Below, in pieces: positions 5,221 to 24,353 of a stretch of DNA of 64,000 nt. The stretch covers positions 192,001 to 256,000 of the forward strand of contig CAVOUE010000005.1 of assembly GCA_963699545.1 (NCBI GenBank). Direction: 5' to 3'. Position numbers and translations under genes: made by a program. The notes under the pieces are model-generated. The model did no database searches, was not told the origin of the DNA, and was given only the letters and a program-made list of their open reading frames with translations. This DNA is from Nitrospirota bacterium (GTDB lineage: Bacteria > Nitrospirota > Thermodesulfovibrionia > Thermodesulfovibrionales > UBA9159). Numbering within the stretch: the first letter of the stretch is position 1; every line of letters begins with the position of its first letter.

Positions 5221-7324
5221 CTAGTCCGGCCTTGGATGACCCGCCTGCTCCCTCATGGCCTCTTTTCTGCTGAGGCGGATCTTTCCCTGCCTGTCTATTT
5301 CGATCACCTTTACGTCAACTTCGTCGCCTTCCTGCAGTTCGTCCGTGACCTTTGCTATCCTTTTCTCTGATATTTGGGAGATGTGAAGCAGTCCGTCGGT
5401 TCCCGGCAGGATTTCAACAAACGCTCCGAAATCGGTGATCCTCTTCACCTTGCCGTGATAGATCCTTCCCGAGCTCGGCCTCCGCGATGATACCGTTGAT
5501 GATATCGATGGCCTTTTGCGCCGAGGTCTCGTCGGCAGACGCGATATTGATCAACCCGGAATCATCGATATCGATCTTGACCCCCGTCTGCTCGATGATC
5601 CCCCGGATGACCTTCCCTCCTGAGCCGATCACGTCCCTGATCTTGTCCTGCTTGATCTGCATGGTATAGATCCTGGGTGCATGGGGTGCGAGGCTCTCCC
5701 TCGGCCCAGCAAGAGCTTCTCTTATCTTGCCGATAATAAAAACCCTTCCCTGCCGCGCCTGTTCAAGGGCCTTGTCCATCACTTCTTTGCGTATGCCCCC
5801 TGTTTTCAGGTCCATCTGAAACGCGGTGATGCCCTGCTCAGTTCCGGTAACCTTGAAATCCATATCTCCCAGATGATCCTCGAGACCGAGAATATCGGTG
5901 AGGACAACCGTCTTGTCCCCTTCCTGAATCAGTCCCATGGCAATACCCGCCACCGGCGCCTTGATGGGCACACCTGCATCCATAAGGGCCAGGGTGGAAC
6001 CACAGACCGTTGCCATGGAAGAGGACCCGTTCGATTCAAGGATATCGGAGACGATCCTTATGGTGTAGGGAAACACCTCCTTCGACGGGATGATCGGTTT
6101 CAGGGATCTCTCTGCAAGGGCACCGTGTCCTATCTCCCGTCTTCCCGGCGAACGCAGGGGCTTCACCTCACCCACGCTGAACGGAGGAAAATTATAATGG
6201 AGCATGAAGGTCTTGTAAACTTCTCCTTCAAGTGTCTCGATCTTCTGCTCGTCTTCCGAGGTGCCAAGGGTAACGGCAACAAGCGCCTGTGTTTCGCCTC
6301 TGACAAAAAGGGCTGAACCGTGGGCCCGGGGAAGAAATCCGACCGACGAAGTTATCTGGCGTATCTCGTCGGGACGCCTTCCGTCAGCCCTCACCCCCTC
6401 GTTGATGATCATCTGTCTTACCAGGTCCTTCTCTATATCAAAGAATATGTTCGCAATGTTTTTCGCAAGCCCTTTTTCCTCTGCTTCGAAATGCTTCAGG
6501 GTCTCATCGAGAAGCATATCCAGGGCCTCCTGCCGTCGTTGTTTTCCCGGGATCGCGATGTGCTCCTTGATGCGGTCGAGCACATATGTCTTTACGCCGC
6601 TCTGGAGTTCCACGTTCTCTTCTTTCTGGATAAGGGGTCTCTTCGGCCTTCCGATTCGGGACCTTAGTTCATTCTGCATGGCCACGAGCCGCTTAATTTC
6701 AGCATGTCCGAATTCTATGGCATCAAGGAGTATCTTTTCCGATACTTCTGCCGCGCTCCCCTCTACCATCATGACGGCATCCTGTGTGCCGGCGACCACG
6801 ATATTCAGCTCTAGGGATTCCACTTCTGAAAGATCGGGGTTAATCACAAGTTCGCCCTTCAGCAATCCGACCCTCACCGCACCCACAGGACCATTGAAGG
6901 GGATATCGGAGATCACCAATGCCGCCGACATCGCGGTGATCCCGAGGACATCCGATACATTTTCCTCTCCGAAGGAGAGCACCGACACGATACCCTGCGT
7001 CTCCGAACGAAATCCCTTAGGGAAGAGGGGGCGCATGGGCCTGTCCACAAGGCGGGAGGTGAGCACCTCCTTTTCCGTCGGTCTGCCTTCCCTCTTGAAA
7101 TATCCTCCGGGGATCTTCCCCGCAGCAAACGTCTTTTCCTGATAGTCAATGGTCAACGGAAAGAAGTCAAGCCCTTCCCTCACCTTCTTGTCTGCGACCG
7201 CCGTGGCGAGCAGAACCGTATCACCATACTTCACAACAACAGCCCCATCTGACTGCTTCGCCATTTCACCGGTCTCGATGGTCAACTTCTTGCCTCTCAC
7301 TTCAACTGCTACATTCGTTATCAA
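5221..7324 (-). CDS. pnp: Polyribonucleotide nucleotidyltransferase (frameshift near 5455 separates the S1 domain)
   Basis: [40 protein letters not shown] domain [11 protein letters not shown]1 domain [20 protein letters not shown]. Confidence 0.97.
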
Positions 7325-7889: not shown

Positions 7890-8399
7890 TCACAGATCGC
7901 CCTTGTCGCTCATCCTGCGGATTCGTACCGAACGCTTCAACGCTCTCATAATGACATACAGGCGGGATTCAAAAAGACTGATCGCCGCGATCAGACAACT
8001 GACAGTGCTCCACATCTTTGCTTCAAGGTCCATATATATCGGACCATTCTCAACTGCACAAACCTTACCGAGAATTTCCCTGTCCCGAACAGGCTCATCC
8101 GGAATGACCAGCGCGTCCCCCTTCGTCTGGAACGTGATTCCCTCAGTGTCATTTTCACCTCTCCTGACGATCCGGTGAACCACCGGCCGGCCCTCATGAT
8201 TTCTGAAGAATATCAGATCTCCTCGCTTCAGCGAATTGCGGGGTACCTTTCTTATGGTCACAATTTCTCCCCCGTGGAGGAAAGGGTTCATGCTTCTCCC
8301 TGTCACCCTCACCCGGAGAGAAGCCCCCCTGCCGAGGATATCTTCGAAAAGCCCGACACAGCAGGGCAATGGGATTTCAGCGCGCTTTTTCACCCACAT
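7890..8399 (-). CDS. S24/S26-family (signal peptidase I-like, Ser-His type) peptidase without an evident N-terminal membrane anchor
   Basis: VTGRSMNP (catalytic Ser), GDLIFF, VVHRI (His), TKGD; last gene of the RiPP cassette. Confidence 0.8.
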   Translation of the reverse strand: MWVKKRAEIPLPCCVGLFEDILGRGASLRVRVTGRSMNPFLHGGEIVTIRKVPRNSLKRGDLIFFRNHEGRPVVHRIVRRGENDTEGITFQTKGDALVIPDEPVRDREILGKVCAVENGPIYMDLEAKMWSTVSCLIAAISLFESRLYVIMRALKRSVRIRRMSDKGDL

Positions 8400-9346
8400 C
8401 TCCTTTCTCGGCGATGAGCGAACTCTGCCAGGAAGCCTGCAACGTCCCTGCCAGGCCTGAAGGAGAGCTCATACGCGGGGATATTGGTGATGAGTTCATC
8501 GCAGAACGACAGGACCTTTGCCGTCGCCTCTCGATCATACCAGGGGACCGAGACAACCGGGAGGAGCCGCCTGCCCGATTCCGGACCGCCCAATTCCAGA
8601 ACCAGGTTATGCTCAGCATGGGCAAGGAACATGATGCCCGCAAGCGGGACACCCTTGTTCAAAGCATCTCCGGCCTCGCCGGGCCATGGAGTTCCGAACA
8701 CATAGAAGTCGTTCCCGATCTTTCGTACAACGACCCTGTCGTCACTCAGCACATCGCACCGGGCGGCATCCGCGAACTGTCTTGCCAGTGTACTCTTCCC
8801 TGAGCCGGACCGTCCCGGGAATATATATCCCTTCCCCTGCATATCCACCCCTGCCGCATGGATAAGGATACCTTCTCGCCCGGCGAGGGCGTACATTAAG
8901 AGAAGCTGATCAAGAGGATAGCTGAAGGGATTCCTGATCATTTCTTTGCCTTCGACTTCCACGATGTCCATTTTTCCGCAATAGATGATCGCCGTTTCAA
9001 AACGCCGGTCAAAGCGGGCTATGCACTCCGGTCCATCCCCGAGAGAAGGGTTGAGGACCAAATAATATTCGTCTCCCTTTTTGAACATGGACCAGGAACC
9101 CCTGCCTTCAAAGACTTCGGTCAAGTCTTCGATGGCGGGGAGACTCCCCGTCTCAAGATTCACATCGATCGTAAAAAAGCCGGCATCACCAGCCGTGGCG
9201 TCTGTTAAGAAAGACGCGTATGGTGCATTCGGGGGCTCAATCAGTATGGGCAGATCTCTGCAGTGTATGGCGAAGCGGACGTCTGCTATCACGATGTTCA
9301 GCAGGCACACTCTTTGTAAACTTCCCTTATCAGTTCGTAAACACAA
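8390..9346 (-). CDS. HPr-kinase-related P-loop kinase of a peptide-modification cassette (start uncertain)
   Basis: LIHAAGV, Walker A GRSGSGKSTL, LSDDRVVVR, FGTPWPGE. Confidence 0.75.
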   Translation of the reverse strand: MCLRTDKGSLQRVCLLNIVIADVRFAIHCRDLPILIEPPNAPYASFLTDATAGDAGFFTIDVNLETGSLPAIEDLTEVFEGRGSWSMFKKGDEYYLVLNPSLGDGPECIARFDRRFETAIIYCGKMDIVEVEGKEMIRNPFSYPLDQLLLMYALAGREGILIHAAGVDMQGKGYIFPGRSGSGKSTLARQFADAARCDVLSDDRVVVRKIGNDFYVFGTPWPGEAGDALNKGVPLAGIMFLAHAEHNLVLELGGPESGRRLLPVVSVPWYDREATAKVLSFCDELITNIPAYELSFRPGRDVAGFLAEFAHRRERRCG

Positions 9347-9349
9347 CCA

Positions 9350-9538
9350 TTATGACGCATACGCACCGGGCACCGAGCAGGGCGCAAACCCGCACATGCC
9401 AGTACTGCCATGCTTCCCCGGCGCCCCGCTGGCGGTCTTGCAGCCGATAGCCAATACCTCTTCAGCAACCAGCGGAATCACACTTAATCTCGGCTTCTCA
9501 TACGGGTGCTTGCGCTTTTCTTCCTGCTTTTTTGTCAT
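9350..9538 (-). CDS. Putative RiPP precursor peptide, 62 aa
   Basis: MTKKQEEKRKHPYEKPRLSVIPLVAEEVLA-IGCKTASGAPGKHGSTGMCGFAPCSVPGAYAS; YxxPxL leader motif, 3 Cys, AAGGAG RBS, lies between the rSAM and kinase genes. Confidence 0.85.
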   Translation of the reverse strand: MTKKQEEKRKHPYEKPRLSVIPLVAEEVLAIGCKTASGAPGKHGSTGMCGFAPCSVPGAYAS

Positions 9539-10634
9539 GATTGTCTCCTTCCGAATTGTAATCCTTTATGCGCTGATACCGAAGCTCTCCCATTCTGCAG
9601 ATATACTGAGACGGGACATCCTCTGCCCCGTTTTCCAGTCTGAAAAAAGCAGGACAATAACCGCACAGATTGATCTTCTCGCAGCCTCTACAAGAGAAGT
9701 CAGGCGACGCTTTCTTGCTTCGCAGCCGAGATACGATATCACTCCATGCCGCCGCGAATCCGCTTCCCGAGAGCATGTGTTGAACATCACCTGTCATGAG
9801 ACAGGGCTGGAGACAACCGTTGGGTCCGACGTGAAAGCTGGTCAGCCCGGCGCCGCACCCATACAGTTCATCGAACAGCAAATGCTCTTTTGATTCCTCA
9901 TAAAAGGATCCCCAACGCTGAATTGTCTCCTCGTCAGAAAATTCCATTTCTATGGCTCTTTCGGGAGCAACCCTCAGCTCGATCGGGGCTCTCTCCCCAC
10001 CCATGCCGGCTGATATCGCAGCGTCAAACCGGAACCTGGCCCCGAATTCCTTGGCAATCCTCTCCATAGCAAATAATTCATGGCTGTTTACCGTCATGAG
10101 AACCGTTTTAAGGCTAATCTTCACGCTGTTCGCCACAAGAGCCTTTATGCCGCGCAGACACTTTTCGTAAGACCCCTGCACTCCTGTCACTCTCTCATAC
10201 GTGGATGCCGTAGCCCCATACAGACTGATCTCCACGAGAAGGGGCGGCAGAGCTCTGAAGAGATCAATGATGTCATTCCTGAGCAGCGTACCATTAGAAA
10301 AGACCGTGACCAAAAGACCCTTTTCCTTTGCATACCGATAAATTTTGGGGAAGTCGTCACGAAGAAGCGGCTCCCCTCCCGTAACCAACAGGTTCAGACA
10401 CCCAGCCTCGGTTATTTCATCAATGAGAGAGAGAATCCTGTCGCTGCTCATTTCACCACGCCTCAGTTCCCGTCCCTTTGCATCGGAGCCCAGATAGCAA
10501 TGGATGCATCTGAGATTGCAGGCATGGGTCACCTCAATGCTCCCCGAAAGCGGAATATGAAGCCGCCGGGCTTTCATAAGGAACCGTGCCAGGTAGTTTT
10601 CGGCGCTCAACTCTGTCTGCTCCCGGCAGTGCAT
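9498..10634 (-). CDS. Radical SAM enzyme with SPASM domain
   Basis: CNLRCIHC (CxxxCxxC), TGGEPLLR, SPASM cysteines CGAG...PC...CRGCEKINLCGYCP...C. Confidence 0.93.
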   Translation of the reverse strand: MHCREQTELSAENYLARFLMKARRLHIPLSGSIEVTHACNLRCIHCYLGSDAKGRELRRGEMSSDRILSLIDEITEAGCLNLLVTGGEPLLRDDFPKIYRYAKEKGLLVTVFSNGTLLRNDIIDLFRALPPLLVEISLYGATASTYERVTGVQGSYEKCLRGIKALVANSVKISLKTVLMTVNSHELFAMERIAKEFGARFRFDAAISAGMGGERAPIELRVAPERAIEMEFSDEETIQRWGSFYEESKEHLLFDELYGCGAGLTSFHVGPNGCLQPCLMTGDVQHMLSGSGFAAAWSDIVSRLRSKKASPDFSCRGCEKINLCGYCPAFFRLENGAEDVPSQYICRMGELRYQRIKDYNSEGDNHDKKAGRKAQAPV

Positions 10635-10636
10635 CT

Positions 10637-10957
10637 TCAGCCCGTCCTTTCACGAACCAGCCCTGCCTCCAGGAGGCCCTCAATAAACTCGCAAATATCT
10701 GCCCCGGCAACCTGCTGATTCACATCAAACTGCTCTACAACATCGTTGCGGATGTCGTTTAAGCTTTCTGTTCCATCCAGCCTGTCCCAGATATATTCAG
10801 CAACCGCGGTGAGGGCGAATATCTTCTCCATGTCAGCAAGCTTCCCCTTAACCGGCACAAGGAAAAGCTCGCCGGCGATCTTGCGGGAGACTACATCCTT
10901 GTCCCGCATAAAGACCCTGCCCAACGCGTCGCTGTTTAAGGGCTGTACCAATCCCAT
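10637..10957 (-). CDS. PqqD-family RiPP recognition element (RRE)
   Basis: About 100 aa, VVSRKIAGELFLVP...IFALTAVAEYIWDRLDG...DICEFIEGLLEAGLV; adjacent to rSAM. Confidence 0.9.
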   Translation of the reverse strand: MGLVQPLNSDALGRVFMRDKDVVSRKIAGELFLVPVKGKLADMEKIFALTAVAEYIWDRLDGTESLNDIRNDVVEQFDVNQQVAGADICEFIEGLLEAGLVRERTG

Positions 10958-10962
10958 CCGCT

Positions 10963-13900
10963 CTATTTCAGCCTGAGCGCGGGATCGCCAATGATGTTAT
11001 ACATATCAATCATGGATGGCACCGTTCCCTTTGTCCTGTATTCTGTGAAGGCCTTCACTACCGCCTCTCCCAGTGTCTTTTTCCCTCCGGAGAAGACCGC
11101 CTTGTAGAATTCACTGTTGAGTACTTCAGCCTCTGAGTTGTCGGACAACCCGGTGGCCGACCAAACTGCTGCTGCTCCGCCGCCCGTCTTCAACAACATG
11201 GACTCGCTCAGCGAGAGGTAATCCGGCAGCGCAAACTCGCCTGCAGCACAGGTCATGGCAACCATAACCGGAAGTCCGTTCCCATTGGTCAGGGAATCCA
11301 CCTGGAGGGCATCCGGATACCAGCTACTGCTGGCAAAAATCGACCAGTTTGAGAGAACATCTATTCCGGCGTGGCCAATATAGTTAAAGAACGAGGCGCC
11401 GTTGTTCAGGTAGGTCGAAAGCATCGCCCTGGCCTCATCGAAAGAATGTTCGGCAAGGTATACCCTCTCCCGAATGTAATTCGACGGGAACAGGGCGGCC
11501 ATCACTTCACTGTTGAGCGTAAAGTTGCCTCCCCCATCAGGGTAATCCGCAAGCAGGACGGCCCGGTTCCCCGGGGTGCTTTCGAATGTCTTTATCTTGT
11601 TAATGATATTCTGCACATCGTCAGGAACGAGGATAGGAAGTCGTCCTATTGCCATATCGGGCACATGGTCGCCGTTCACATCCGCCAGGTAATTGTCAGA
11701 TGTCACAAGCCCGTATGATGTCGGCACCAATGCGGGGGGTATGAGATTCCCGCCCGCGCCCAGGTTATCCCTGTAGTCCCATGTCCCATTTCCTGCCAGC
11801 ACTATGTATCGTGGGGCCTTTTTCCAATTGTGGTATGCATAGGACAGGAACAGCCTGATCGCCTCGGGGCTTGAGAGTCCGAAATTGAATTCGTTCATGA
11901 TATCATCCACCTTCACCACCATTGCTTTCAAGCCCTGTGCTTTCCTGTAAAGGGCAAGAGGCTGTACCGCCGGGACCAGTTCTCCAGGCGCGATGATAAG
12001 ATAATCGGCCGAGAGATCCTTCGATCGCAGACCCGCTGGAACAACCGCGCGTCCATTGCCCACTTTCACGACCGCATCAGCTGCAACAGCCAGATAGAGT
12101 GCATCGGCTGAAACGGGTTTAACGCTGATCCGGTAGTTCCCTGGCGCACCATCAATGGTCGTGGCGGTGTTCAACTTCGGAGACTCGGCATCCGTAACGT
12201 CAAAGAGAAGGATGTCCGGCGTCGCAGTGGTGAACCCGCTGACGGTCACGGTATTGTTCCCGTCCCCTCTGAAGAAGAGTCTGTTCCCCGATGCGGTGTA
12301 AAGCCGTTCGTAGGTGAGGTCAAAGGAGTCTATGAGGAACATGCTCCAGGGAACGCCTGCATCCAGAACCCCTTGCACCTCGATCGTGTTTTGCCCGTCA
12401 TTGAGCAAAGACTGGCTGAAAGTGGCAGTCAGGGTATAAGGATTCAAACCTTCCCATTGTCCCTCACCTATCTGCTGACCATTGAGCCTTACTATAACGT
12501 GGTGGTCGGGGTTCGTCCCCGCATCGGAGCCGCCAAAAAGATGCACTTGGAGCGTAGCCGCAGTATTCGTATCCGCTTTCCCGTATCCGGAGAACGTGAA
12601 GCTCTTGGGGCCATCACTGTACGAAGCGCTCAGGAAGATCAGGTCCCAGTCCCAGAAGTCAACTCCGGGGTCATCGAGCTGCATATTGGGGATCAGGTCC
12701 TGTTCGATATGCAAGGTCTCCGTAAAGGCCTTGTTACCGGGTGCAGGGACAGGGTGCGGTCCTGTCTGATAATTCATGGTCGCGCCCTTGTCGGTATCGA
12801 TCCAGTAGATGTTATCGCGTGTATATACACTGTCCGTTGCCGTACCATAGAAGAACATGCCGGTGTCATGGTTGGCGGCCAAATAGGCGACAGGGTTGCC
12901 CTGATTGCTCACCGACAACCTGTCATGAGCGATAAGGGACGAAATTTTTGAAGAGGAACTGCCAAGCAGCTTCGCCAGATCACCAGCATCCACGTAATAG
13001 ATCCCGTTTGCGGTCACGGGTATCTTTACACGGGTTCCCACAACAGATGCCTGGCTTGTTCTGACCAGCTGGGCGGATTCGTTTGCAGCCTTTGCGGCCT
13101 GCACGCGGGATTCCTTGAATGCAGAATGTTCCCGTGCGCTGCGGTTGTAGTCGGAAGGATGGAACGAGTTCGCCCTGCCGGACGTCTTTACCGAGCGGTC
13201 CGTTATCCCGCCGGAAGGGGCGTCATTTCCCCCTTCCACAGACACGGTAAAGGGACCGTATGAGATCTGATCGCCGCTCCTCTCGACCTCGACAAGTCTA
13301 TATTGGTATACCTCACCAGGGAACGCCCCCTTGTCGATGATCGTGTATGTTCCGCCTCTGCGGGAGGTGATGACGCCGGGCAGTAAGCCCTCGGTCAAGC
13401 TCCGGTATTCGCCCGTGGCGGCGTCCAGCCTCAAAAGGTAAAAGCCCAGGGTATTATGCTCGGAGGCCGTCTCCCACTCCACTACTACCTGACCGTCATG
13501 CTCATGTGCGCCGAAGAAGGAGAGAACGACCCGTGTGGGGACGACAGGACTGGCGTAGCCGAAATGGACATTGGATTGATTGCCACCGCTGAGATCCACG
13601 GTTTCCTGGCCGTTGAAAGGCCCGGTTGTGCCTTCGGTCTTCTCATAGGTGGGGAAGTAGCCGCTCAAAACACCGGTGTTATCCGTGACCTTGACAGTAT
13701 AGGTGCCGCTCGCCAAGCCACTGAAGCTATAATTTCCGGTGGCGGCAGTGGAGGTCGTTGCAACGGTATTACCCCCCTGCAACAGAGAGATCGTCACTCC
13801 GCCTATGCCTGCTTCACCGCCGTCAATAGTGCCATTGTTATTATTATCACTCCAGATGTTCCCTGACACGCTGCGGGACGTCGTGGCCTGGTAGCCAAAG

Positions 13901-16900
13901 TTCTTATCCAGGGAGTTACCCCCACCGACTATGCTCGCGCCCTGCTGCTGCCCGGTCGTCACCCCATCGCTGTCAGTTCCGCTGAACGTGTAACCGCCGG
14001 GCGGAGATTCGATGCTTACGATATAATTCCCATTGCTCAGCCCGGAGAAAACGTAATTGCCGTTGGCATCAGTGGTCACGGTTGTAATCAGTGTGTCGCC
14101 ACCGTTTATCTGTCCGTTCCCGTTCACATCGTTGTACAACTTTACGCTGACTCCGCTGATTCCCAGTTCGCCCGTCTCCTGGCCGTTAATGCCGTTGATA
14201 TCGTTAAACACTGTACCGGCAATGCTCCTTCGCAGATCATAACCGAAGTTAGGAGCTGAGCTATAATCAACATTGGCGGTGACGTTTATAACCTGCTTTG
14301 TACTGGAAATAGCTGAACTCGTCGTGCCGAAGTAATTGGCCAGTTTCGCGTTCGTGTCGGTGACCTTGATGGTATAGTCCGCCCCTCCTCCAGTAACCCC
14401 GGAGAAAGTGAAATATCCATTAGCATCGGTGGTCGTGGTCGCAATGACATTGAGACTGGCATCCAGCAAATCCAGCGTCACCAGAGCGATACCCGTCTCG
14501 CCCACATTCACAGAACCATTGCCATTGGCATCGAACCAGACCCTGTCTGTGATGGAGTAAGTCGTCCCGCTGTGATAGCCGAAGTTCGCATACTGGATGA
14601 CGTCGCCTGCGCTGAGGTTATTGATAAAGAGCGGATCGTTAGGTGGCGCCGTCCTCGTATACCCTGTCAGTTTCGCCTGGCTCCCGTCAACATATACGAA
14701 GTAATCCTCACTACCGGTGGCCGGCACCCCGGTGAACAGATAGCTGCCGTCAGGCGCGGTAGTGGTGGAACCCCACAGGGTATCACCGGCTCCAGGCTCG
14801 AACGTGCCGTTGCCGTTTGCGTCCTGCCAGAGCTGGACCGTTACTCCGCCCAGTCCGGGTTCACCTGCATCGCGACTGCCGCTACTGTTCGCGTCGCTCC
14901 AGATCGAGCTTCTGATGGTGGCGCTCCCCGGAGCAGACTTATAGCCCAGATCCGCGCCCACGTATGACAAGCCGGCGCTCAGATTGAAGGCATTCGTGCG
15001 GTTGTCGCTGTGACCGGCAGGAGCGGACTGCTGTAGACCGGAAGGAAGCGTCCCCGGGGTTATTTCGATGTAGTATCCATTACCGGATTCCACGCCAGTA
15101 AACAAGTAATGACCTGTGGCGTCTGTCGTGGTTGTCATGACCGAGGCCCCGAGCCAGTTCTTCAGTGTCACGTCAACGTTGGCGAGCCCCGGCTCACCCA
15201 GATCCAAAACGCCGTTGCCGTTGGCATCGAGCCAGACGCGGTCGCCCACTTCAGCGCTCCCGGAAGACGGGTTGACGACGATGTTGGTAACGCTTGCAGT
15301 GAGCGCTAACGGGATTTCATTGCTGTTGACAAAAGCCGTGTTGGTGATCTGTTCGATCCCGCTGGCCAGGGGGTTATCCACTGTGACGTTGTACGTCAGG
15401 GTGAGGGAGTTACCTGGCCGGATACGACAACCGGTCCCGCCGGACAGGAGATCGGGCGGACTGCCGGTCGTAAAAGTACCGAGTAAACCGTAGCTGATAT
15501 CCACATTATCGACGGAGAAAGTCTTGTTGGTGGCATTGAATCCCCCGGTGACCCGAAAGCGTATCGTCGTATTGGCAGAGATATAGGGTGTGAGATTGTA
15601 AGGAGGAGCAACATTCGGAGTGCCACCCGTGAAGGTCGCCAGGGTCGTAAATGGACCCGCTGCGCTAGTGCTGGCCTCCACCACCAACGTATCGCCGGCC
15701 ACGAGGTTAGCGGAGCCGTAGCTGAAGTTGAGCAGCGGATTCACCGCACCTGTGAGATCGGCGGTGCGCTGGACCTGAGTCCCTGAGGCGTTGGCAGGGA
15801 CGTTGTAAATTATGTCCACATTGTCGAGGTAGACTAGGTCGCCTCCAGCATTCCAATTCTGACCGGCACGGAATCGAACAGTGAGTGTATTGTTGCCGGC
15901 CAAGGCAATGGTTAACGTTTGGTTGTTCCCGCTCCAGCCGCCAGTACCTCCATCGTACGTACCGATGTTTACATAACCGCCACCGTCCAGGCTGTACTCC
16001 GCAACCAGCGTCTCGCCCCCATCGAATCCCCCGTCAGTTGGAGTAAAGCTGATTGTGGCGCTCGTTGCGCCAGTTACAGTCGCAGTCCTTAAGATCGCAT
16101 CGTTTGCCTGACATTGCGTAAATTCCAACCGGTTATTTCCATTGCTGAGCCGTATAGTTCCGGTGCTGTAATCGGGAGCGCCCGCATCGTTCTCTTCCGT
16201 CCAGCTGCCGGCCCAATTATTTGAACCATAATTTCCGCCATAAGTATTGTTGGTGGTGAACTCATCCCGCACATTCGAGAGCAAATATCTGAACTGCAAC
16301 TGGCCTCCGGTGATCCATACGAATCCACCTGTCGCCCCGGTTGCGCCGCCGTAACTGTCCGTCTCGGTCCAGTTGCCCGCCCAGTTGTTAGTATTGTTCG
16401 GGCCGTTGTTGGTGTAGGCGGAAGCCGCAAACTCGTCGCGGACGTTCCGCGGCAACTCACAGGTCACTGACCCGCTGGCCGCCACATAGGTCACCCCGTC
16501 GGGAAGCGGGTCGTACACAGATACACCTGTGAAGGCCGCCGCCGAAGGGTTTGTCACGGTGACGGTATAGGTGAACTGGTTTCCAGGGTATAGAGGGCTG
16601 GGAGCGTTTGAGGTCTTTGTCACACTCAGATTACCATAGCTGTTGAACGCAAAGTCGGAAGCGACAAAGGTCTGGGTCGCTCCTGCCACGGTTCTGGTTC
16701 CGCTCGTCTGGACCACATTGCGGGTGATATCGCCCACATTGAAGTTCTGTGTTGTCTGGGCGGTGAACGTGACGGTTATCGTCTGGTTTGCAGCCATATT
16801 GCCGAGCATACTGCTGGGCCAGGTCAGGATCAAATTACCGCCGCTTATCGTGGGATTTGCGGATCCGCCGCTGACCGTTGTCATGTCCGCGATGGTGATC

Positions 16901-18618
16901 GTAGTGCTGTTGTTCACATACTGCCAGCCTGTAGGGAGGGTGTCGACCACGCTGATCCCTGCGACGTCAAAGTGATAAGAATTAATCACGAGCGTATAGG
17001 TGGATTGCGCACCCGCCGTCGTTGAGACTACAACCGGGTTGGCTGATTTCTTTACCGTAAGTACCTTGTCAATAAAATCACCGCCGGGGAACGAAACATA
17101 CCCCAGATCAATGGCCGGGGCTGCCGTAGGAGAAGTATCAGGGTTCTGGCCGTATGCGATCGCAATGGGACCGGTGGCCCAGACATGGGTGTTCGACAAA
17201 TTGCCGTCCCCTGTATCGTACACGTATTGTGTCTGGAGGCGGTTCAGCGTGTAGGTCTGGTCAGGGATCCCGTCATCGTTCGTATCGATAAACACCCGGG
17301 TATTGTCCTGGACCGGGGTAATAAAAATCCCGGAGTCATCGTAATTTGCCGCAAGGATAGGAGTCGCGTAAGCCCCCGGCGCCCAGCCGAAGAAATGCTC
17401 GTTCCCGAGCAGAAATGACGGCACAAGGGGATAACCCCATTCATGGGTTGGTCCCCCCGTGTCGATCGTCGACACTCCCCAGAAGACCTCGCTCGCTTTC
17501 ACGTAGACCCCCGAACCTGCAGGCACGTAGCCTCCTGTCATCTCACTAAATGAACGCGTCTGCCCGGCCGGGACACTGAATGAACCAGAGGCAGAACTGG
17601 TCTGGTAGTTGATCGTCAGGGCAGAAGACTGCGGGTTAAAGACATAGAGCTGTGTGGGATAATTGGAACCGGCGTCGCTCGGCACAGGGGCATAGTACTC
17701 GTTGTCCCACATGCCGCTCGGAAAGGCGCTGAAGCCGCGTGCTTCAAACGTCGCGGTCTGATCTCCCACGATATAGTTCACCTGCAGGGTATCGGAGCCC
17801 TGTATGACTGTCCCCGTAGGCAGGGATACTGCGCCCGTAGTCGGAAACGGGGCGAAACGATCAAGCAGGAAGACCTCTCCGGAATTGAGCGTTACCTGCG
17901 TTGCAGTCTGGGTGCAGGGATTATTATGGCTTATGCAAACGGTATCGCCAAAGGTCCCGTCCTTATTGAAATCGAAGGTAACAACCGTGTTATCCTTCGT
18001 GGCCTGAATCAGTGCAAACACCCTTCTGAAATCGAGATAGTTGCGGGGGGCACCATAAAGGTCGTCGCCAAAGGGGAGGATATACCTGACCATTTGCGGC
18101 TTGACAGGATAAACCTCCCATGCCAAAGAAAACACCGTCCCGTCAGTCTCCTCCCAGCTCGTTCGTGTGACGGTAACGACTCCACCGGCAACATAGATTC
18201 GATCCCGGCCGTCGTAGTAAGTTGCGGTCCCCCTCGGGTTCACCGGTATATTGGAGCTCTCAAATATCCTGCTGTCTCCGGCATTGGCCAGGACGTACTT
18301 TTCGTCGGCTGTCGCATCGGGGTTGTTCGGGTCGAAATTATATCCGTTCTCCCATTGGTCGTAGTAGATTGTTGTATTCGGCGACCATGCGACAACGCTG
18401 ATGATTGTGTGCCTGGGAGCGGTGAGCGCAACAGGACCCGCCGCGCCGATGTCGGCCCAAACCTGTCCCAAAATGTTTTCATCACCGGGGATAAAGTATT
18501 CCGAGTAACCCGCAGGAGCAGCGCCATAGCTGTACGTTGCGCATGACAAAAAAACCATAAGACTTAGGAAAAATTTATAGAGGGCTGTCATTGATCTCAG
18601 GAATGTCTTTGCGGTCAT
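10963..18618 (-). CDS. Giant (2551 aa) secreted surface protein: IgGFc-binding-like N-terminus, DUF11-type domains, five SdrD-B-like repeats, C-terminal C25 (gingipain/PorU-like) peptidase
   Basis: Signal-peptide-like N-terminus; DUF11 motifs (VTKTS...TYTVTVTN...VYDPLP); GDRVWLDANGNG-type repeats; C25 motifs ADYLII, LAGNGTWDY, IGRLP, YIGHAG, AMTCAAG, YNIIGDPAL. Uninterrupted ORF. Confidence 0.88.
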   Translation of the reverse strand: MTAKTFLRSMTALYKFFLSLMVFLSCATYSYGAAPAGYSEYFIPGDENILGQVWADIGAAGPVALTAPRHTIISVVAWSPNTTIYYDQWENGYNFDPNNPDATADEKYVLANAGDSRIFESSNIPVNPRGTATYYDGRDRIYVAGGVVTVTRTSWEETDGTVFSLAWEVYPVKPQMVRYILPFGDDLYGAPRNYLDFRRVFALIQATKDNTVVTFDFNKDGTFGDTVCISHNNPCTQTATQVTLNSGEVFLLDRFAPFPTTGAVSLPTGTVIQGSDTLQVNYIVGDQTATFEARGFSAFPSGMWDNEYYAPVPSDAGSNYPTQLYVFNPQSSALTINYQTSSASGSFSVPAGQTRSFSEMTGGYVPAGSGVYVKASEVFWGVSTIDTGGPTHEWGYPLVPSFLLGNEHFFGWAPGAYATPILAANYDDSGIFITPVQDNTRVFIDTNDDGIPDQTYTLNRLQTQYVYDTGDGNLSNTHVWATGPIAIAYGQNPDTSPTAAPAIDLGYVSFPGGDFIDKVLTVKKSANPVVVSTTAGAQSTYTLVINSYHFDVAGISVVDTLPTGWQYVNNSTTITIADMTTVSGGSANPTISGGNLILTWPSSMLGNMAANQTITVTFTAQTTQNFNVGDITRNVVQTSGTRTVAGATQTFVASDFAFNSYGNLSVTKTSNAPSPLYPGNQFTYTVTVTNPSAAAFTGVSVYDPLPDGVTYVAASGSVTCELPRNVRDEFAASAYTNNGPNNTNNWAGNWTETDSYGGATGATGGFVWITGGQLQFRYLLSNVRDEFTTNNTYGGNYGSNNWAGSWTEENDAGAPDYSTGTIRLSNGNNRLEFTQCQANDAILRTATVTGATSATISFTPTDGGFDGGETLVAEYSLDGGGYVNIGTYDGGTGGWSGNNQTLTIALAGNNTLTVRFRAGQNWNAGGDLVYLDNVDIIYNVPANASGTQVQRTADLTGAVNPLLNFSYGSANLVAGDTLVVEASTSAAGPFTTLATFTGGTPNVAPPYNLTPYISANTTIRFRVTGGFNATNKTFSVDNVDISYGLLGTFTTGSPPDLLSGGTGCRIRPGNSLTLTYNVTVDNPLASGIEQITNTAFVNSNEIPLALTASVTNIVVNPSSGSAEVGDRVWLDANGNGVLDLGEPGLANVDVTLKNWLGASVMTTTTDATGHYLFTGVESGNGYYIEITPGTLPSGLQQSAPAGHSDNRTNAFNLSAGLSYVGADLGYKSAPGSATIRSSIWSDANSSGSRDAGEPGLGGVTVQLWQDANGNGTFEPGAGDTLWGSTTTAPDGSYLFTGVPATGSEDYFVYVDGSQAKLTGYTRTAPPNDPLFINNLSAGDVIQYANFGYHSGTTYSITDRVWFDANGNGSVNVGETGIALVTLDLLDASLNVIATTTTDANGYFTFSGVTGGGADYTIKVTDTNAKLANYFGTTSSAISSTKQVINVTANVDYSSAPNFGYDLRRSIAGTVFNDINGINGQETGELGISGVSVKLYNDVNGNGQINGGDTLITTVTTDANGNYVFSGLSNGNYIVSIESPPGGYTFSGTDSDGVTTGQQQGASIVGGGNSLDKNFGYQATTSRSVSGNIWSDNNNNGTIDGGEAGIGGVTISLLQGGNTVATTSTAATGNYSFSGLASGTYTVKVTDNTGVLSGYFPTYEKTEGTTGPFNGQETVDLSGGNQSNVHFGYASPVVPTRVVLSFFGAHEHDGQVVVEWETASEHNTLGFYLLRLDAATGEYRSLTEGLLPGVITSRRGGTYTIIDKGAFPGEVYQYRLVEVERSGDQISYGPFTVSVEGGNDAPSGGITDRSVKTSGRANSFHPSDYNRSAREHSAFKESRVQAAKAANESAQLVRTSQASVVGTRVKIPVTANGIYYVDAGDLAKLLGSSSSKISSLIAHDRLSVSNQGNPVAYLAANHDTGMFFYGTATDSVYTRDNIYWIDTDKGATMNYQTGPHPVPAPGNKAFTETLHIEQDLIPNMQLDDPGVDFWDWDLIFLSASYSDGPKSFTFSGYGKADTNTAATLQVHLFGGSDAGTNPDHHVIVRLNGQQIGEGQWEGLNPYTLTATFSQSLLNDGQNTIEVQGVLDAGVPWSMFLIDSFDLTYERLYTASGNRLFFRGDGNNTVTVSGFTTATPDILLFDVTDAESPKLNTATTIDGAPGNYRISVKPVSADALYLAVAADAVVKVGNGRAVVPAGLRSKDLSADYLIIAPGELVPAVQPLALYRKAQGLKAMVVKVDDIMNEFNFGLSSPEAIRLFLSYAYHNWKKAPRYIVLAGNGTWDYRDNLGAGGNLIPPALVPTSYGLVTSDNYLADVNGDHVPDMAIGRLPILVPDDVQNIINKIKTFESTPGNRAVLLADYPDGGGNFTLNSEVMAALFPSNYIRERVYLAEHSFDEARAMLSTYLNNGASFFNYIGHAGIDVLSNWSIFASSSWYPDALQVDSLTNGNGLPVMVAMTCAAGEFALPDYLSLSESMLLKTGGGAAAVWSATGLSDNSEAEVLNSEFYKAVFSGGKKTLGEAVVKAFTEYRTKGTVPSMIDMYNIIGDPALRLK
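13560..15250 (-). repeat. Five tandem SdrD-B-like domain repeats within the giant protein
   Basis: VGDRVWLDANGNG..GEPGL; IRSSIWSDANSSG..GEPGL; ITDRVWFDANGNG..GETGI; IAGTVFNDINGING..GELGI; VSGNIWSDNNNNG..GEAGI. Confidence 0.85.
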
Positions 18619-18713
18619 AAAAGAAATCCTCCTCTTTCTGGAGTGTTACGCCTCCCCTTCATGCGGTACACCTCCCAACAAAAGCGCCGCGACGCAAAAC
18701 TTCCTGTCTTATC

Positions 18714-18731
18714 ATGCAGTTTTTGTACCAG
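18714..18731 (-). promoter_or_regulatory. Sigma-54 (-24/-12) promoter for the giant-protein/RiPP operon
   Basis: Minus strand CTGGTACAAAAACTGCAT: exact GG-N10-GC spacing, close to the TGGCAC-N5-TTGC consensus, about 100 bp upstream of the ATG. Confidence 0.75.
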
Positions 18732-18790
18732 TTGCCTTGTTTAATAGTATATTGATATGCATGGGAAAAAAAGCCTTTCCATCCTGAGAC

Positions 18791-18837
18791 TGTAGAATAA
18801 TGACAAATAGTGTCAAGTACAGTGTAAAAACCCGACA
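18791..18837. promoter_or_regulatory. Candidate enhancer-binding-protein sites (two TGT-N9-ACA boxes)
   Basis: TGTAGAATAATGACA (18791-18805) and TGTAAAAACCCGACA (18823-18837), 32 bp apart, with the palindrome TGACAAATAGTGTCA overlapping the first; about 60-110 bp upstream of the sigma-54 site. Confidence 0.6.
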
Positions 18838-18995: not shown

Positions 18996-21353
18996 TCACT
19001 TTCCGCCCAGTTCTTTCAGTCTTCTCTGGGCATTCTTGTCACGCGGATTCAGGACCAGCACATTCTCGTACTCCTCTCTCGCACGATGGAATATATGCAG
19101 CTTGTCATAAAGTTGCGCAAGATTAGACCTCAGTCCGTAGTCCGACGGATGATTCTTCACCCCTTCTTCGCAAAAAAACAGCGCCTGTTCAAGCTCGCCT
19201 TTTTTCTGATATATTCCTGTTATCCTGTAATATGCTTCACTCCCTGCGGCCCCTGTCCTTTTCATAACAGCGAGCGCGTCGAGATAGCTGTCCAATGCCT
19301 CCTGGATATCGCCCTTTTCTTCTCTATACTTCCCGTAAAGGAGCAGCGCAGATGGCGTATCGGGGATTGCGCCCCTTATTTCATCCGCGGTGAGTCTGCT
19401 CAGGGCAAGAGCGGTAATGTATTTCCCTGTATTATCGGGATCGAAGGCTATCGCCTCTTTCATCTCTTGTATCGCTTCCTCCTTCCGCCCCTGGGAAAAG
19501 AGCCACAACGAGTAATTCTTGCGCATCCATGCCGACATCGGGTCATAGAGCACCGCAAGTTTCATATATCTTGCCGCCCTGTCGTTGTCGCCTGCATTGC
19601 CGTAGGCAACACCCAGCATCTGCAAATACTCGCCGCGAACGGGATTCAGGGCCACCGCTCTCGAGAAATTGCCGACCATCTTTTCCTTCTTCCCGAGGGC
19701 ATAGTCGATAGTGCCCTTTGCAAAAGGCAGCCTGGCATCGAAGGGACTCAGTATGGCGGCCTTTTCCAGCATCGCCTCTTTTAAGGCAAGCTCCGACCCC
19801 TCCCTTAGCGACCCTTTTGCGAGCGAGTAGAGGACGTCGGCACCAGCATTGAACACGGGGATGGCGCAGATTAAAATACCCGTTACCCCAAGCCCGGCGA
19901 TCAGCCATTTTCTCGTCTGCTGCGGGATCCCTATCTCTCTCTCCCTGAGGTGTGTCCCTCCGTTTCCTTCTTTAACCCTTGCATGCGACACAGCCACCGC
20001 AAAACCCATCAGAAAACAAAAGTAAAGGCCGTTCGCGCCCAGCCGCAGGTTGAAGTCGGTCAGGCTGTGAATCATGATCGCTGTAATTCCTGTCACTGCG
20101 CCCAGAGAGAGGAGCCGCGAAGAGAGCGATTTCCGTCTCCTGAGCATCACGAACATTTTCCTGTAAAACGATCCCATGATATAAAGCATTATCAACAGTC
20201 CCGACAGACCGAGTTCGGCAGCGCCTTCTATGTAATCATTGTGAGCATGTTCCCAACGCTCCTGCGTCAGCACTGTCTTATAGCGGGGATAGACGTGCTC
20301 ATACGTTCCAAGGCCCGTACCGAACAGAGGGTATGCACGTATTATCTTCAGCGAATCTTTCCAGTTCTGTATCCTGTATTCACGGGAAGCGTCTGCGTAC
20401 CTTATTTTTTCGAACCGCTCAAAGACCGGTCCCCAGCCGAACCACCCGACGCTGAACAGCACAACGAGAAACAGCGCGACGATGGTCCGCCCCTTCTTTC
20501 TTGTTGAGTCTCTCAGCCAAAGCATCATCCCGAAGAAGAGCATCGAGAGGCTTAGTCCTATTATCCCGCCCCTTGACAGGCTCAGGAAGAGTGACGTACT
20601 CATGATCACCGCCGCGGTCCAGGCGAGAATAGCCCGGTTTGCCCGTCTGTGGGAAAAAAAATCGGCCACGGTCTTCTTTATGTCGCTGTCGCCCTTCGTT
20701 CCGGGGAGAGTATAGATGAGAAATCCGACACAGACAGGGATGAGCATCTCCATGAGACCGGCAAAATGGTTCCTGTTCACATACGGTCCAAAGGGCTGAC
20801 CCACCTGGCTTAATTCCCTGAACCAGAGCAGTTTCCCGTTCCACAATATCAGCTGGAATATTCCCAGGAGCGCGCAGCATGTCCCGATGACAAGGATGAC
20901 CTCGGTCATCAGGGTTATGGATCGTCTGTCTCTCAGCATCTGGACCGTAAGGCAATATACGCATGTGTATGCGATAAACCTCGCTATCTCCAAAAGGGTC
21001 GCATGGGGATAAAGGGAAATGGTAAGCCAGGGAAGAGCGCTTGTGTGGGGAAGATTCTCAGAGTAGACCCGGTATGTCTGGGGCGAAAGCACTTGGACAA
21101 ATGACGGAGGCATCGGAACGAGCTGCATGATTGCGAGTCCCAGGAGCAACACGACAGGCAGAAGAAAGGGCGGCTCTATGACAGAGATCGTCGTTTCCTT
21201 CTTGAACAGCCGGAAAAGCCACAGGAATAACAGAGAGATGCAAAGCACCTCCATTAGCGCAAGCGACCAGGGCTCAACCGTACCGAATAACAGGGGAGCG
21301 AGGAAAAGGAGGCAGATAAAACCGCGCTGAATGGCCTTCTCTACATCGATCAC
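18996..21353 (-). CDS. O-antigen ligase/Wzy-like membrane protein with C-terminal TPR region
   Basis: Multiple TM helices, GPYVNRNHFAG, SLSRGG, PLFGTGLGTY, HAHNDY; TPR-like helices in the last ~280 aa. Confidence 0.85.
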   Translation of the reverse strand: MIDVEKAIQRGFICLLFLAPLLFGTVEPWSLALMEVLCISLLFLWLFRLFKKETTISVIEPPFLLPVVLLLGLAIMQLVPMPPSFVQVLSPQTYRVYSENLPHTSALPWLTISLYPHATLLEIARFIAYTCVYCLTVQMLRDRRSITLMTEVILVIGTCCALLGIFQLILWNGKLLWFRELSQVGQPFGPYVNRNHFAGLMEMLIPVCVGFLIYTLPGTKGDSDIKKTVADFFSHRRANRAILAWTAAVIMSTSLFLSLSRGGIIGLSLSMLFFGMMLWLRDSTRKKGRTIVALFLVVLFSVGWFGWGPVFERFEKIRYADASREYRIQNWKDSLKIIRAYPLFGTGLGTYEHVYPRYKTVLTQERWEHAHNDYIEGAAELGLSGLLIMLYIMGSFYRKMFVMLRRRKSLSSRLLSLGAVTGITAIMIHSLTDFNLRLGANGLYFCFLMGFAVAVSHARVKEGNGGTHLREREIGIPQQTRKWLIAGLGVTGILICAIPVFNAGADVLYSLAKGSLREGSELALKEAMLEKAAILSPFDARLPFAKGTIDYALGKKEKMVGNFSRAVALNPVRGEYLQMLGVAYGNAGDNDRAARYMKLAVLYDPMSAWMRKNYSLWLFSQGRKEEAIQEMKEAIAFDPDNTGKYITALALSRLTADEIRGAIPDTPSALLLYGKYREEKGDIQEALDSYLDALAVMKRTGAAGSEAYYRITGIYQKKGELEQALFFCEEGVKNHPSDYGLRSNLAQLYDKLHIFHRAREEYENVLVLNPRDKNAQRRLKELGGK

Positions 21354-23529
21354 ACGGCCTTTCCCTTGTCCTGACCGTATTGAGAATAGTACGGATACAG
21401 GTACCTGTATCCTTCTCTCTTCGTATCCACCCTGTTCAGGACCACCCCCAATATTTTGGCGTTGATGTCCTTGAGCAGCTTTGTCCCTCTCTTCGCCACT
21501 TCAAACGTCGTTTTACCGCTCCTGACCACGACTACTGTCCCGTCTACCAGATCCGAGAGAATCGTTGTGTCCGTCACGGTAATAAGGGGTGCTGTGTCGA
21601 ACACCACGATATCAAACTTCTCATTTACAATATGCAGGAACTCCTTCATCCTCTTCGACCCGAGGAGCTCCGATGGATTCGGCGGCAACGGGCCCGCGGT
21701 GATGATGCTCAGATGGGGGACGGGGCTGGTCTTTATCATATCCCTGACAACCTGGCGTGCAAGGAAACTGCTGAGCCCTATGGAGTTCTCCATTCCGAAG
21801 ACGGTGTGCACCTTCGGTTTCCTGAGATCCGCGTCCACAAGCAAGACCATCTTTTCCATCTGTGCCAGGGTGATGGCGAGGTTGATCGCGGTGGTCGTCT
21901 TGCCCTCATCCTCCAATGAACTGGTCACCACAAAACTCTTTACCGGCTCCACTGCCGAAAGCAGAATGCTCGTTCGCAGGGCCCTGTATGTTCTCCGAGA
22001 CAGTGGATTTCTGATCTGTGTGCGTGATCGCTTCCAGCCGCTCTTCCGGATCGGTCTTGCTGAAAAAAGGAATCACCCCAAGGAGCGGCAGCGAGAGTTT
22101 TTCCTCAACATCTTCCGGTTTCTTGAAGGTGTTGTCGACATATTCGAGGAAGAACGCGATTCCCACTCCACCGAACAGGCCCACGATGACGGAGAGGAGG
22201 ACATTGAGAAGCCTCCTGGGCCTCACCGGACTCTTGGGCACCTCTGCCCTGTCGACGATGTAGATGTTGAAGGATTTCACTTCCTCAATAAGACTCGTCT
22301 TCCTTAATGCGTTTCAGAAGCGCATCATATATCTGTTGATTGCTGTCGACCTCGCGTTTGAGGACACCGTATTCTATCGACTTCGCAGAGAGAGACATGG
22401 CCTCACCCTTCCCCTGCGCCAAAGAACTTCTCAGTCCGGCCTCTTTTGTCTTCGCAAGTTCGTAATCGTTCTTCATCGCAGTGATGATCCTTTTCGACTC
22501 GCTGGACATCCTCTCCCGAATTGCTCTCAGGTCTTCCTTCAGTAATATCATCTGGGGATGTTTCTCTCCGAACTTCTTCGACATCTCCATCACATCCTTT
22601 TCCCTTCTTATCTCGTCCGTCCTGAGAGACTGCATCACCGGATCCCCTGCTACGGCAGGCACCGTGAGGGCTCCCGCAAGGTTGTTCGTAAGGTCCTTCA
22701 CCTGATTGTACAGGGCCTCGACCTCCTTCCTCCTGCTTTCCGCCATGACCAGTTGGGAGCTCAGGCTCTGGACCTTCTGAGGTGTGATCGCCTCCTTGCT
22801 CTCCAGTTCTACGATATCCTTGTCCTTCATGTACTCCTGAAGCGCCCTCTGCGACTGCTCCAGCAACTTCTTCTGTTCATCGATCTTCTTCGACATCCAC
22901 TCAACAGCATGCTTTGCCGTCCCCATCTTGATATCAAGGACCTGCTCTACATAGGCATCCGCCACGCCGTTGGCGACGTATGCCGCCAGGTTCGGATCGT
23001 GGTACTCATAACTGATGTTCACTATCCTGCTGCCCTTTATGGGATCCACCCTGAGGTTTCCCTGAACTTTCTTTGCTAGGACCAACAGGGGGTCCTCGAG
23101 GCTCCTTTCTTCCGGAGCATTCTTCCTTGTCGAGACGACATTCCTCAGCATGCCGAAGAACCCGCTCAGCGCACCCCCGCCCGATTTCTTCGCTGCCGGG
23201 TTGAAAGCCGGGTTATTCTGAAGGGTGAGATTCTTCACGACTTTATATGCAACCGCACCGCTTCTTATAAGCTCATACTGGGTGTGATAGTAGTCCTCTG
23301 AATAGAGGTCGGTATACACGGCATTGATATTCGACAAATACTGGTTCTCCCTGTCGATGAGAACGCGTGTCGTGGCCCTGTACACAGGTGTGGTCGTCAG
23401 GGTACCTATGGTAACCACAACAACAAGCACGGAGAAGAACGTAAGAACACTGTTGCTTCTCTTTACGATGACCTTCCAGTAGTCTCGCAGGTGTATCTCT
23501 TCGTCTTGAGGTCTTTCCATTCCGTCCAT
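21350..23529 (-). CDS. wzc: Wzc/GumC-type polysaccharide co-polymerase with BY-kinase domain (two frameshifts, near 22285 and 21985)
   Basis: EEIHLRDYW, PVYRAT, coiled coil, P-rich PKSPVRP before TM2, Walker A SSLEDEGKT, VDADLRKP, FDTAP, Tyr cluster YRYLYPYYSQY. Confidence 0.88.
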
Positions 23530-23539
23530 ATGTCGTTGA

Positions 23540-24343: not shown

Positions 24344-24353
24344 CTTTCTTACC

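Follow-up and report, generated by a model that had tools for sequence, protein, structure and literature searches.

This locus raises the question of why a set of small genes of the kind that modifies peptides should share an operon with the gene for a giant secreted protein. It lies in a 64,000-nucleotide stretch of DNA from a Nitrospirota bacterium (GenBank assembly GCA_963699545.1, contig CAVOUE010000005.1, positions 192,001 to 256,000), which is called the window below; all window coordinates are positions within this whole stretch. The operon is composed of six co-oriented genes at 7890-18618, which encode, in order, a 2551-residue protein with a C-terminal C25 peptidase module, a PqqD-type protein, a radical S-adenosylmethionine (rSAM) enzyme, a 62-residue peptide, an HPrK-like protein, and an S26-type peptidase. 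The operon with all of its elements, the promoter candidates, and the polysaccharide genes upstream are located on the minus strand. It is rather probable that the five small genes constitute a peptide-maturation pathway built on the core of the pathway for linear polyphosphorylated peptides (LPP) in Bacillota with an added rSAM enzyme, and that this pathway is coupled to the giant C25 adhesin.

According to the open reading frame (ORF) calls, neighboring genes are no more than 5 nt apart or overlap; from the giant gene to the peptidase gene, the junctions are, in turn, gaps of 5 and 2 nt, an overlap of 41 nt, a gap of 3 nt, and an overlap of 10 nt. This layout had been proposed in an initial annotation of the DNA, and it was borne out by the ORF calls and family matches. 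The same annotation had stated that an ABC exporter, a lasso cyclase, and an immunity gene are missing, and ORF and family scans agreed: no exporter, lasso cyclase, or other ORF of at least 50 residues with a family match was detected inside 7890-18731, and no immunity gene was detected in the operon by ORF and Pfam scans. A separate terminator between the giant gene and pqqD was also looked for, and no terminator-like site was seen at this junction.

The enzymes of the cassette were assigned from family matches and conserved residues. The PqqD-type protein (10637-10957, 106 residues), which represents the recognition element (RRE) of a ribosomally synthesized peptide with post-translational modifications (RiPP), matches PF05402 with 51 bits (cut-off 23.4) and gives sub-threshold matches to the ScmD, PqqD, and lasso PqqD models. 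The rSAM enzyme (9498-10634, 378 residues) matches Radical_SAM above its cut-off with 80 bits, has the cluster motif CNLRCIHC (CX3CX2C) at residue 39, and carries SPASM-type C-terminal cysteines, of which C260, C278, C315, C318, C324, C327, and C346 are invariant in 24 homologs. At E 1e-20 or better, its family comprises 2422 database proteins, among which the closest that carry a name come from Nitrospirota metagenome bins, and no NCBIfam equivalog model attains its cut-off with the window enzyme. In a profile comparison, the thioether synthase SkfB (6efn, E 1.5e-24) was the solved enzyme nearest to it, followed by PqqE and CteB; the match to the mycofactocin maturase is full-length and sub-threshold (116 bits against a cut-off of 265), and likeness to PqqE was seen as well. 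The HPrK-like P-loop protein (8390-9346, 318 residues, TTG start) is a putative peptide serine kinase with sub-threshold family matches, which aligns with the HPr kinase structures 2qmh/1jb1 at E 1.4e-4 and in which the Walker A motif is invariant and an Asp-Asp (DD) pair nearly invariant in 28 homologs. The last gene (7890-8399) encodes a 169-residue signal-peptidase-I-like protein of the archaeal or SipW type (S26), which matches TIGR02228, the model for archaeal-type signal peptidase I, with 63 bits (cut-off 51.85) and in which Ser36, His75, and Asp95 are kept in 44-45 of 45 homologs. By analogy with LppS as described in PMC13381572, this protein is a putative leader peptidase.

The precursor peptide is encoded at 9350-9538 by an ORF of 62 residues with a GGAGG-type ribosome-binding site 6 nt before its ATG. 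Its design includes a leader with the motif YEKPRL (YxxPxL), the junction EEVLAIGCK, a core with three cysteines, and a C-terminal serine. Since homologs occupy the matching position in related loci and share conserved residues, this ORF was taken to be a real precursor: Y13, P16, C33, K34, C49, and C54 are invariant in 30 aligned precursors, 29 of which have the C-terminal serine, mostly as Gly-Ser. A precursor profile search returned 63 matches, 57 of them ending in Ser, and the profile also recovered precursors of like design in more distant loci with multiple rSAM genes that resemble SynChlorMet; the precursors of these distant loci have a (W/Y)xKPxL leader, an EE-VL-x-CK junction, a cysteine core, and a C-terminal serine. 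A lipoprotein-type reading of the LAxGC junction was rejected because the leader has no hydrophobic signal segment. At one related locus (L085:14282-14458, minus strand), a second, nearly identical precursor gene is located upstream of the giant gene, which is thus flanked by precursors.

The giant protein (10963-18618) has an N-terminus that resembles a signal peptide, as judged by eye in the translation, followed by a head of approximately 490 residues, variable adhesin repeats, and a C-terminal PorU-like C25 module. The repeats match DUF11, SdrD_B (five times), SpaA, and CarboxypepD_reg in Pfam and NCBIfam. Peptidase_C25 is matched at residues 2206-2550 (E 2.9e-77), and the Pfam scan of the giant protein gave no match to Propeptide_C25. 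When the C25 neighbors of related cassettes were aligned, the last approximately 860 residues (about 1690-2551, at 10966-13551) were the sole part common to all 22, and the remainder consisted of variable adhesin repeats. The catalytic residues His2416 (11371-11373) and Cys2457 (11248-11250) are invariant in 19 of 19 aligned modules. The best solved relative of the module is PorU (PDB 6za2, E 9.8e-12), with whose GHGG and TATC motifs the His and Cys align. Similarity to PorU extends over approximately 620 residues, including the region preceding the catalytic domain, and the C25 catalytic domain with its His/Cys pair is present in the window module. In contrast, the match to the PorU model NF033707 reaches 210 bits against a cut-off of 420, and the window module is the C-terminus of a giant adhesin, whereas PorU is a separate protein attached to the outer membrane. 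Searches of the genome to which the window belongs, which is 87% complete, for the C-terminal sorting domain of the type IX secretion system and for SprA (TIGR04183 and TIGR04189) gave no match, and control genomes likewise gave none. A single C25 gene and a single HPrK-like gene are present in the window genome. The head of the giant protein (window 17059-18522, minus strand) has no Pfam match; it is placed near protein-atlas clusters that partly carry IgGFc_binding (score 0.95), which is a lead only. The giant protein was also considered as a substrate of the rSAM enzyme and was rejected on the basis of its translation, which appears Sec-targeted and is poor in cysteine.

The coupling of the cassette to the C25 module was assessed in 77 genome loci that had been picked by rSAM similarity alone and whose ORFs were searched with the window proteins; loci fetched because of C25 matches in relatives of the window genome were left out of these figures. 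The pqqD gene was present in 64 of the 77 loci, as was the HPrK-like gene in 64, and a C25 gene was found in 13, always within 150 nt of the cassette. The 27 loci with an rSAM match of E <1e-70 comprised 12 with C25, 7 without it (at least 5 kb on both sides), and 8 with short flanks, so that C25 was present in 12 of the 19 close relatives with enough flanking sequence. The adjacency of a C25 protein, which had been noted at this one locus, is therefore upheld by frequencies far beyond chance (13 of 77 and 12 of 19), and the evidence likewise supports the view of the cassette as a RiPP-type peptide-maturation set. Among the linked loci, which belong to Nitrospirota, Acidobacteriota, Verrucomicrobiota, Actinomycetota, Chloroflexota, and Omnitrophota, the genes stand in three orders, namely giant-pqqD-rSAM-pep-hprk-s26, pqqD-rSAM-pep-hprk-C25(-s26), and C25-hprk-pqqD-rSAM-s26. 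The C25 gene is located between hprk and s26 in loci L087 and L088, after hprk in L006, L022, and L028, and before hprk in L058.

A second survey covered 60 relatives of the window genome (an order-level sample) and yielded 12 strong C25 sites, at 9 of which an HPrK gene is located on the same contig no more than 5 kb away. In a tenth genome (G053), a C25 fragment at the start of a contig adjoins the cassette of that genome; the site in G025 is unlinked, and two further sites are at contig ends. An rSAM tree, built as a quick search with three rows skipped for length, contained one clade (support 99) in which 16 of 18 rows are linked to C25, and a tree of the C25 module contained a matching group of 13 rows, all of them linked. 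Because the joined lineages of cassette and C25 module have stayed together through rearrangements and in several phyla, a functional connection between them is indicated.

The closest characterized system to the window cassette is the LPP pathway of Bacillota (Popov et al., Nat Commun 2026, PMC13381572), which the initial annotation had overlooked and through which a pathway made of an RRE, an HprK kinase, and a SipW-like peptidase has been known since 2026. As described there, the clusters encode LppA, LppB, LppK, LppS, LppN, and LppD and are located inside capsular polysaccharide loci; the leader motif is YxxPxV. LppS is a SipW-like peptidase with a Ser/His/Asp triad that requires Ser29, His68, and Asp93 and removes the leader only together with the RRE LppB, and the HprK-type LppK polyphosphorylates core Ser3 (PMC13381572). 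The authors suspect a role in biofilms (PMC13381572).

Compared with that description, the window cassette has a discrete PqqD-type RRE (above the PF05402 cut-off, with no match to the solved LppB structure), a candidate HprK-like kinase (from sub-threshold matches and a conserved Walker A motif), a leader peptidase of the SipW or archaeal type with the Ser/His/Asp triad, and a leader of the [Y/W]xxPx[L/V] type, in which the Tyr and Pro of YEKPRL are invariant in 30 of 30 precursors. Both are placed in polysaccharide biosynthesis loci. The differences from the published clusters are that the window adds an rSAM/SPASM enzyme and a three-cysteine core ending in Ser, and that its operon has neither the MsbA-like exporter nor the PF14907 NTP transferase (none in 7890-18731). 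Moreover, the window cassette shares its operon with the giant C25 protein and belongs to a different phylum. The LPP product is described as linear, with phosphorylation as the primary modification, and the window departs from this by its rSAM/SPASM gene and three invariant cysteines. The terms 'radical SAM', 'SPASM', and 'C25' do not occur in the main text of PMC13381572, and Peptidase_C25, Radical_SAM, and DUF11 appear in its supplementary domain matrix as column heads only. Two PF14907 genes were found on other contigs of the window genome (G000:C6:116032-116766 and G000:C9:201622-202314), one of them inside a 1055-residue frame; this distant pair could act on the peptide in trans.

A second comparison concerns the tailoring of lasso peptides such as paeninodin and pseudomycoidin. 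Kinases of the HprK family add phosphate to the C-terminal serine of paeninodin-type lasso precursors, on its side chain (PMC6993621). Likenesses to the window are the HprK-family kinase (with or without a nucleotidyltransferase), the precursor ending in Ser, the PqqD-type RRE that reads a YxxP leader, and the PF14907-type transferase found in 10 loci related to the cassette. The window differs from them, as described in PMC6993621, in having no lasso cyclase or B2 protease, in a weak kinase match, and in an rSAM enzyme that takes the place of macrolactam formation. A lasso peptide cluster was rejected for the window itself, as no Asn-synthetase-like macrolactam cyclase or B2 cysteine protease is encoded within the operon or next to it.

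Resemblance to the SynChlorMet cassette (TIGR04248-TIGR04251) had also been noted from the gene set, and it stands in part. The gene kinds agree, with an HPrK-related ScmC, a PqqD-like ScmD, and an rSAM/SPASM gene, and the more distant loci of the survey, with two or three rSAM genes, have the same precursor design. The likeness is weak, however, as all four models fall far under their cut-offs (ScmC 31.5 against 125, ScmD 35.3 against 100, ScmE 91.2 against 400, and ScmF 81.5 against 400 bits), and the window has one rSAM gene whereas SynChlorMet has two. The SynChlorMet models cover related sets of genes for which no product is given; a literature search found no description of the cassette, and its definition is not known to include a C25 partner. 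Sactipeptide and ranthipeptide antibiotics typically combine an rSAM/SPASM enzyme with a PqqD element and a Cys-rich precursor. Their maturases (SkfB, CteB, AlbA, and PapB) resemble the window in the rSAM enzyme with SPASM cysteines, the PqqD-type element, and the Cys-rich core, and differ from it in that the window has its RRE as a protein of its own, encodes a putative kinase and an S26-type peptidase, and matches no equivalog model over its cut-off.

With these systems as a guide, the following pathway is proposed. The PqqD-type protein would bind the YxxPxL motif of the precursor, and the rSAM/SPASM enzyme would introduce cross-links at the three invariant cysteines of the core, most likely thioethers. 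The HPrK-like protein would then phosphorylate a serine, most likely the near-invariant C-terminal one as in paeninodin-type lasso peptides, and the SipW-type peptidase would remove the leader while PqqD holds the precursor. The giant adhesin, presumably exported by Sec, would carry a PorU-like cysteine protease or transpeptidase module, the His/Cys pair of which is intact. Peptide and C25 protein may have a joint function, either on the cell surface or within the polysaccharide matrix.

Several observations weigh against this proposal. For any role of the peptide at the surface, the lack of an exporter is the chief point left to explain: the operon encodes none, though the C25 protein is secreted and the leader peptidase is probably cytoplasmic. 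The HPrK-like assignment is sub-threshold for every model concerned (HprK_rel_B 33.9, ScmC 31.5, and Pfam Hpr_kinase_C 20.2 bits), the window PqqD protein matched no solved RRE except PqqD in a PDB search (E 0.09), and the serine phosphorylated by LppK is core Ser3 and not a C-terminal one (PMC13381572). The trees were quick searches without bootstrap, and the relatives are not independent samples.

The remaining points concern the reach of the coupling. The close cassettes that could be assessed and that have no C25 gene are L005, L007, L010, L018, L021, L025, and L027. In a phylum sample of 251 genomes, searched for C25 at E 1e-20 or better, C25 was found in 20 genomes and the HPrK-like protein in 21, and their adjacency was confined to the order to which the window belongs. 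Cassettes with the HPrK-like protein occur in 11 of the 39 genomes of family f24, in none of which (0 of 39) C25 was found. Conversely, C25 is present in 11 of 11 genomes of family f23, and the HPrK-like protein in 1 of the 11, on another contig. At four f23 loci, C25 is a separate gene for 732-771 residues directly behind a frame of at least 2400 residues, with no cassette. The repeats of the giant f23 partner are of the Ig type (Invasin_D3, He_PIG, and Big_1), and this arrangement indicates that the C25 module can work with a giant adhesin without the peptide. Genes for S-adenosylmethionine synthetase and S-adenosylhomocysteine hydrolase are located next after C25 at these loci (L095:8543-17999, L096, L097, and L099). 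Finally, a locus from the same taxonomic family as the window (L102) has a cassette in the same chromosomal slot and no giant gene; its gene order (L102:5016-15289) is Wzz/Tyr-kinase, Wzy_C-TPR, pqqD-rSAM-pep-hprk-s26, PPDK, and pnp, and its cassette is of a different subtype.

The link between cassette and C25 is thus real but facultative. The C25 module seems to go primarily with giant adhesins, to which it is fused or adjacent, and the cassette primarily with polysaccharide loci. Other partners were noted in loci without C25, including GNAT domains and B12-type rSAM genes. The PF14907 transferase is fused to S26 or adjacent in 10 C25-less loci and was found in none of the main C25-linked group. 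In Omnitrophota, the S26-like protein is fused to a PF14907 nucleotidyltransferase (L003:3892-5973, L005:12174-13784, and L011:3845-6070), and a GNAT domain is also present in two of these proteins. An 844-residue S8 subtilase is encoded directly upstream of pqqD at L014:7073-9607 (plus strand), in the place of the C25 giant, and may be an alternative secreted protease partner. A related locus without C25 (L100) has an ABC exporter.

The operon is placed at the end of a polysaccharide export locus. Upstream of it, as context and not as part of the operon, co-oriented genes for polysaccharide chain-length control and export were identified by Pfam and NCBIfam matches at 18996-25502. These encode a Wzy_C-TPR protein (18996-21353), a Tyr autokinase (21350-21952), a Wzz/EpsF-like protein (22285-23565), an EpsE-like exporter (23540-24412), and an EpsL-like outer-membrane protein (24354-25502). 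Polysaccharide export or chain-length genes also flank the cassettes of L005, L021, and L102, and genes of polysaccharide type, assigned by BLAST cluster, those of L013, L015, L022, and L058.

The operon is probably transcribed from a sigma-54 promoter. A sigma-54-like -24/-12 element (TGGTAC-N5-CTGCA, 2 mismatches) is located at 18715-18730, 96 nt before the ATG of the giant gene, and rpoN is present at window 1-948. The site named in the earlier claim of a single sigma-54 site in front of all six genes is present, and 5 of 7 orthologous Nitrospirota loci have a similar one upstream of the giant gene, as against 0 of 3 loci from other phyla. Matches to the consensus alone are not above chance in the window (20 with up to 2 mismatches, against 25 expected). 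A sigma-70-like candidate (TTGACA-16-TACAGT, consensus match only, 10/12) at 18789-18816 is a possible alternative promoter.

Two further genes of the window are irregular. The ORF for polynucleotide phosphorylase (pnp; 5414-7324, minus strand, 636 residues) stops after the KH domain and has no S1 match, whereas the L102 ortholog has 700 residues with S1; a truncation of the window gene or a frameshift at its 3' end may be the cause. The valS gene appears as two overlapping ORFs (46154-47497 and 44761-46284, minus strand), which correspond to the N-terminal and the C-terminal half of valine-tRNA ligase. A frameshift or an assembly error could account for the split across 44761-47497, or the gene could truly be in two parts.

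Among the ways in which peptide and C25 protein could be related, direct action of the C25 module on the peptide was ranked first and co-regulation of separate components a close second, ahead of a regulatory peptide, with an antibiotic or a cofactor deemed unlikely. In the initial annotation it had been conjectured that the peptide would become ligated to the surface protein, cross-link it, or regulate it. In the link favored here, which is put forward tentatively, the matured peptide would be cut or transferred by the C25 module. A complex prediction with alignments of the C25 module and the precursor gave a score of 0.02 against a mark of 0.32, which is evidence neither way. In a more specific form, the PorU-like module would be a sortase-type transpeptidase that joins the adhesin or other surface proteins to the cross-linked peptide, which would itself be tied, through its C-terminal phosphoserine, to the polysaccharide of the adjacent export locus. 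This form is considered distinctly unlikely; if true, the ribosomal peptide would be a covalent linker between protein and polysaccharide, and the system would be a counterpart outside Bacteroidota of the anchoring of cargo to anionic lipopolysaccharide by PorU.

It is also possible that the two are co-regulated neighbors of one envelope, biofilm, or polysaccharide program without direct chemistry between them, held in a single operon so that they are expressed together, with C25 acting on the adhesin or on other proteins and not on the peptide. The polysaccharide export genes that flank the cassette in the window and in the other loci named above are in keeping with this, as are the f23 genomes, in which the C25 module is paired with a giant Ig-repeat protein and no cassette, and the operon has no exporter that would bring the peptide to a secreted protease. 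The LPP clusters likewise lie in capsular polysaccharide loci and are suspected of a biofilm role in the account given in PMC13381572. Against co-regulation, L087 and L088 have the C25 gene within the cassette itself, where it separates hprk from s26, and in linked loci it is never more than 150 nt away; moreover, the matching of rSAM and C25 clades is tighter than is usual for mere co-regulation.

The conserved coupling would also fit a peptide that regulates the protease, as an inhibitor, a pro-domain in trans, an activator, or a signal for which the giant protein is the receptor, and the lack of a Propeptide_C25 match in the giant protein makes control in trans conceivable. This role is nonetheless unlikely, as many cassettes have no C25 partner, no exporter is encoded, and a literature search on C25 or gingipain proteins with radical SAM found no precedent. 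More improbable still is a free bacteriocin or antibiotic peptide whose cluster is beside a surface-protein gene by accident. The combination of rSAM/SPASM, PqqD, and a Cys-rich peptide is typical of such antibiotics, SkfB is the closest solved relative, and some related loci such as L100 have an ABC exporter, but the window operon has neither exporter nor immunity gene, the adjacency recurs across six phyla and in three gene orders, and the polysaccharide context is housekeeping-like. An intracellular redox cofactor derived from the peptide, as with PQQ or mycofactocin, agrees with the rSAM likeness to the mycofactocin maturase and PqqE and with the lack of an encoded exporter, but is exceedingly improbable, given that no dehydrogenase or other cofactor-using partner is conserved beside the cassette, that the link is to a secreted protein and polysaccharide loci, and that the precursor has three conserved cysteines and a C-terminal serine, unlike known cofactor precursors, which have Glu/Tyr or Val-Tyr motifs.

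In the literature search, neither the rSAM-bearing form with a three-cysteine precursor ending in Ser nor any operon in which peptide maturation is joined to a giant adhesin with a secreted PorU-like protease was found described. The rSAM family is large, is distributed across many mostly uncultured phyla, and has no known product. As three parts of the cassette have an experimental counterpart in the 2026 LPP work, the chemistry is predictable and can be tested. If the peptide and the C25 protein do act together, modified peptides would have a new role in how environmental anaerobes build or regulate their surface and polysaccharide matrix, and the C25 fold would have a new use outside type IX secretion.

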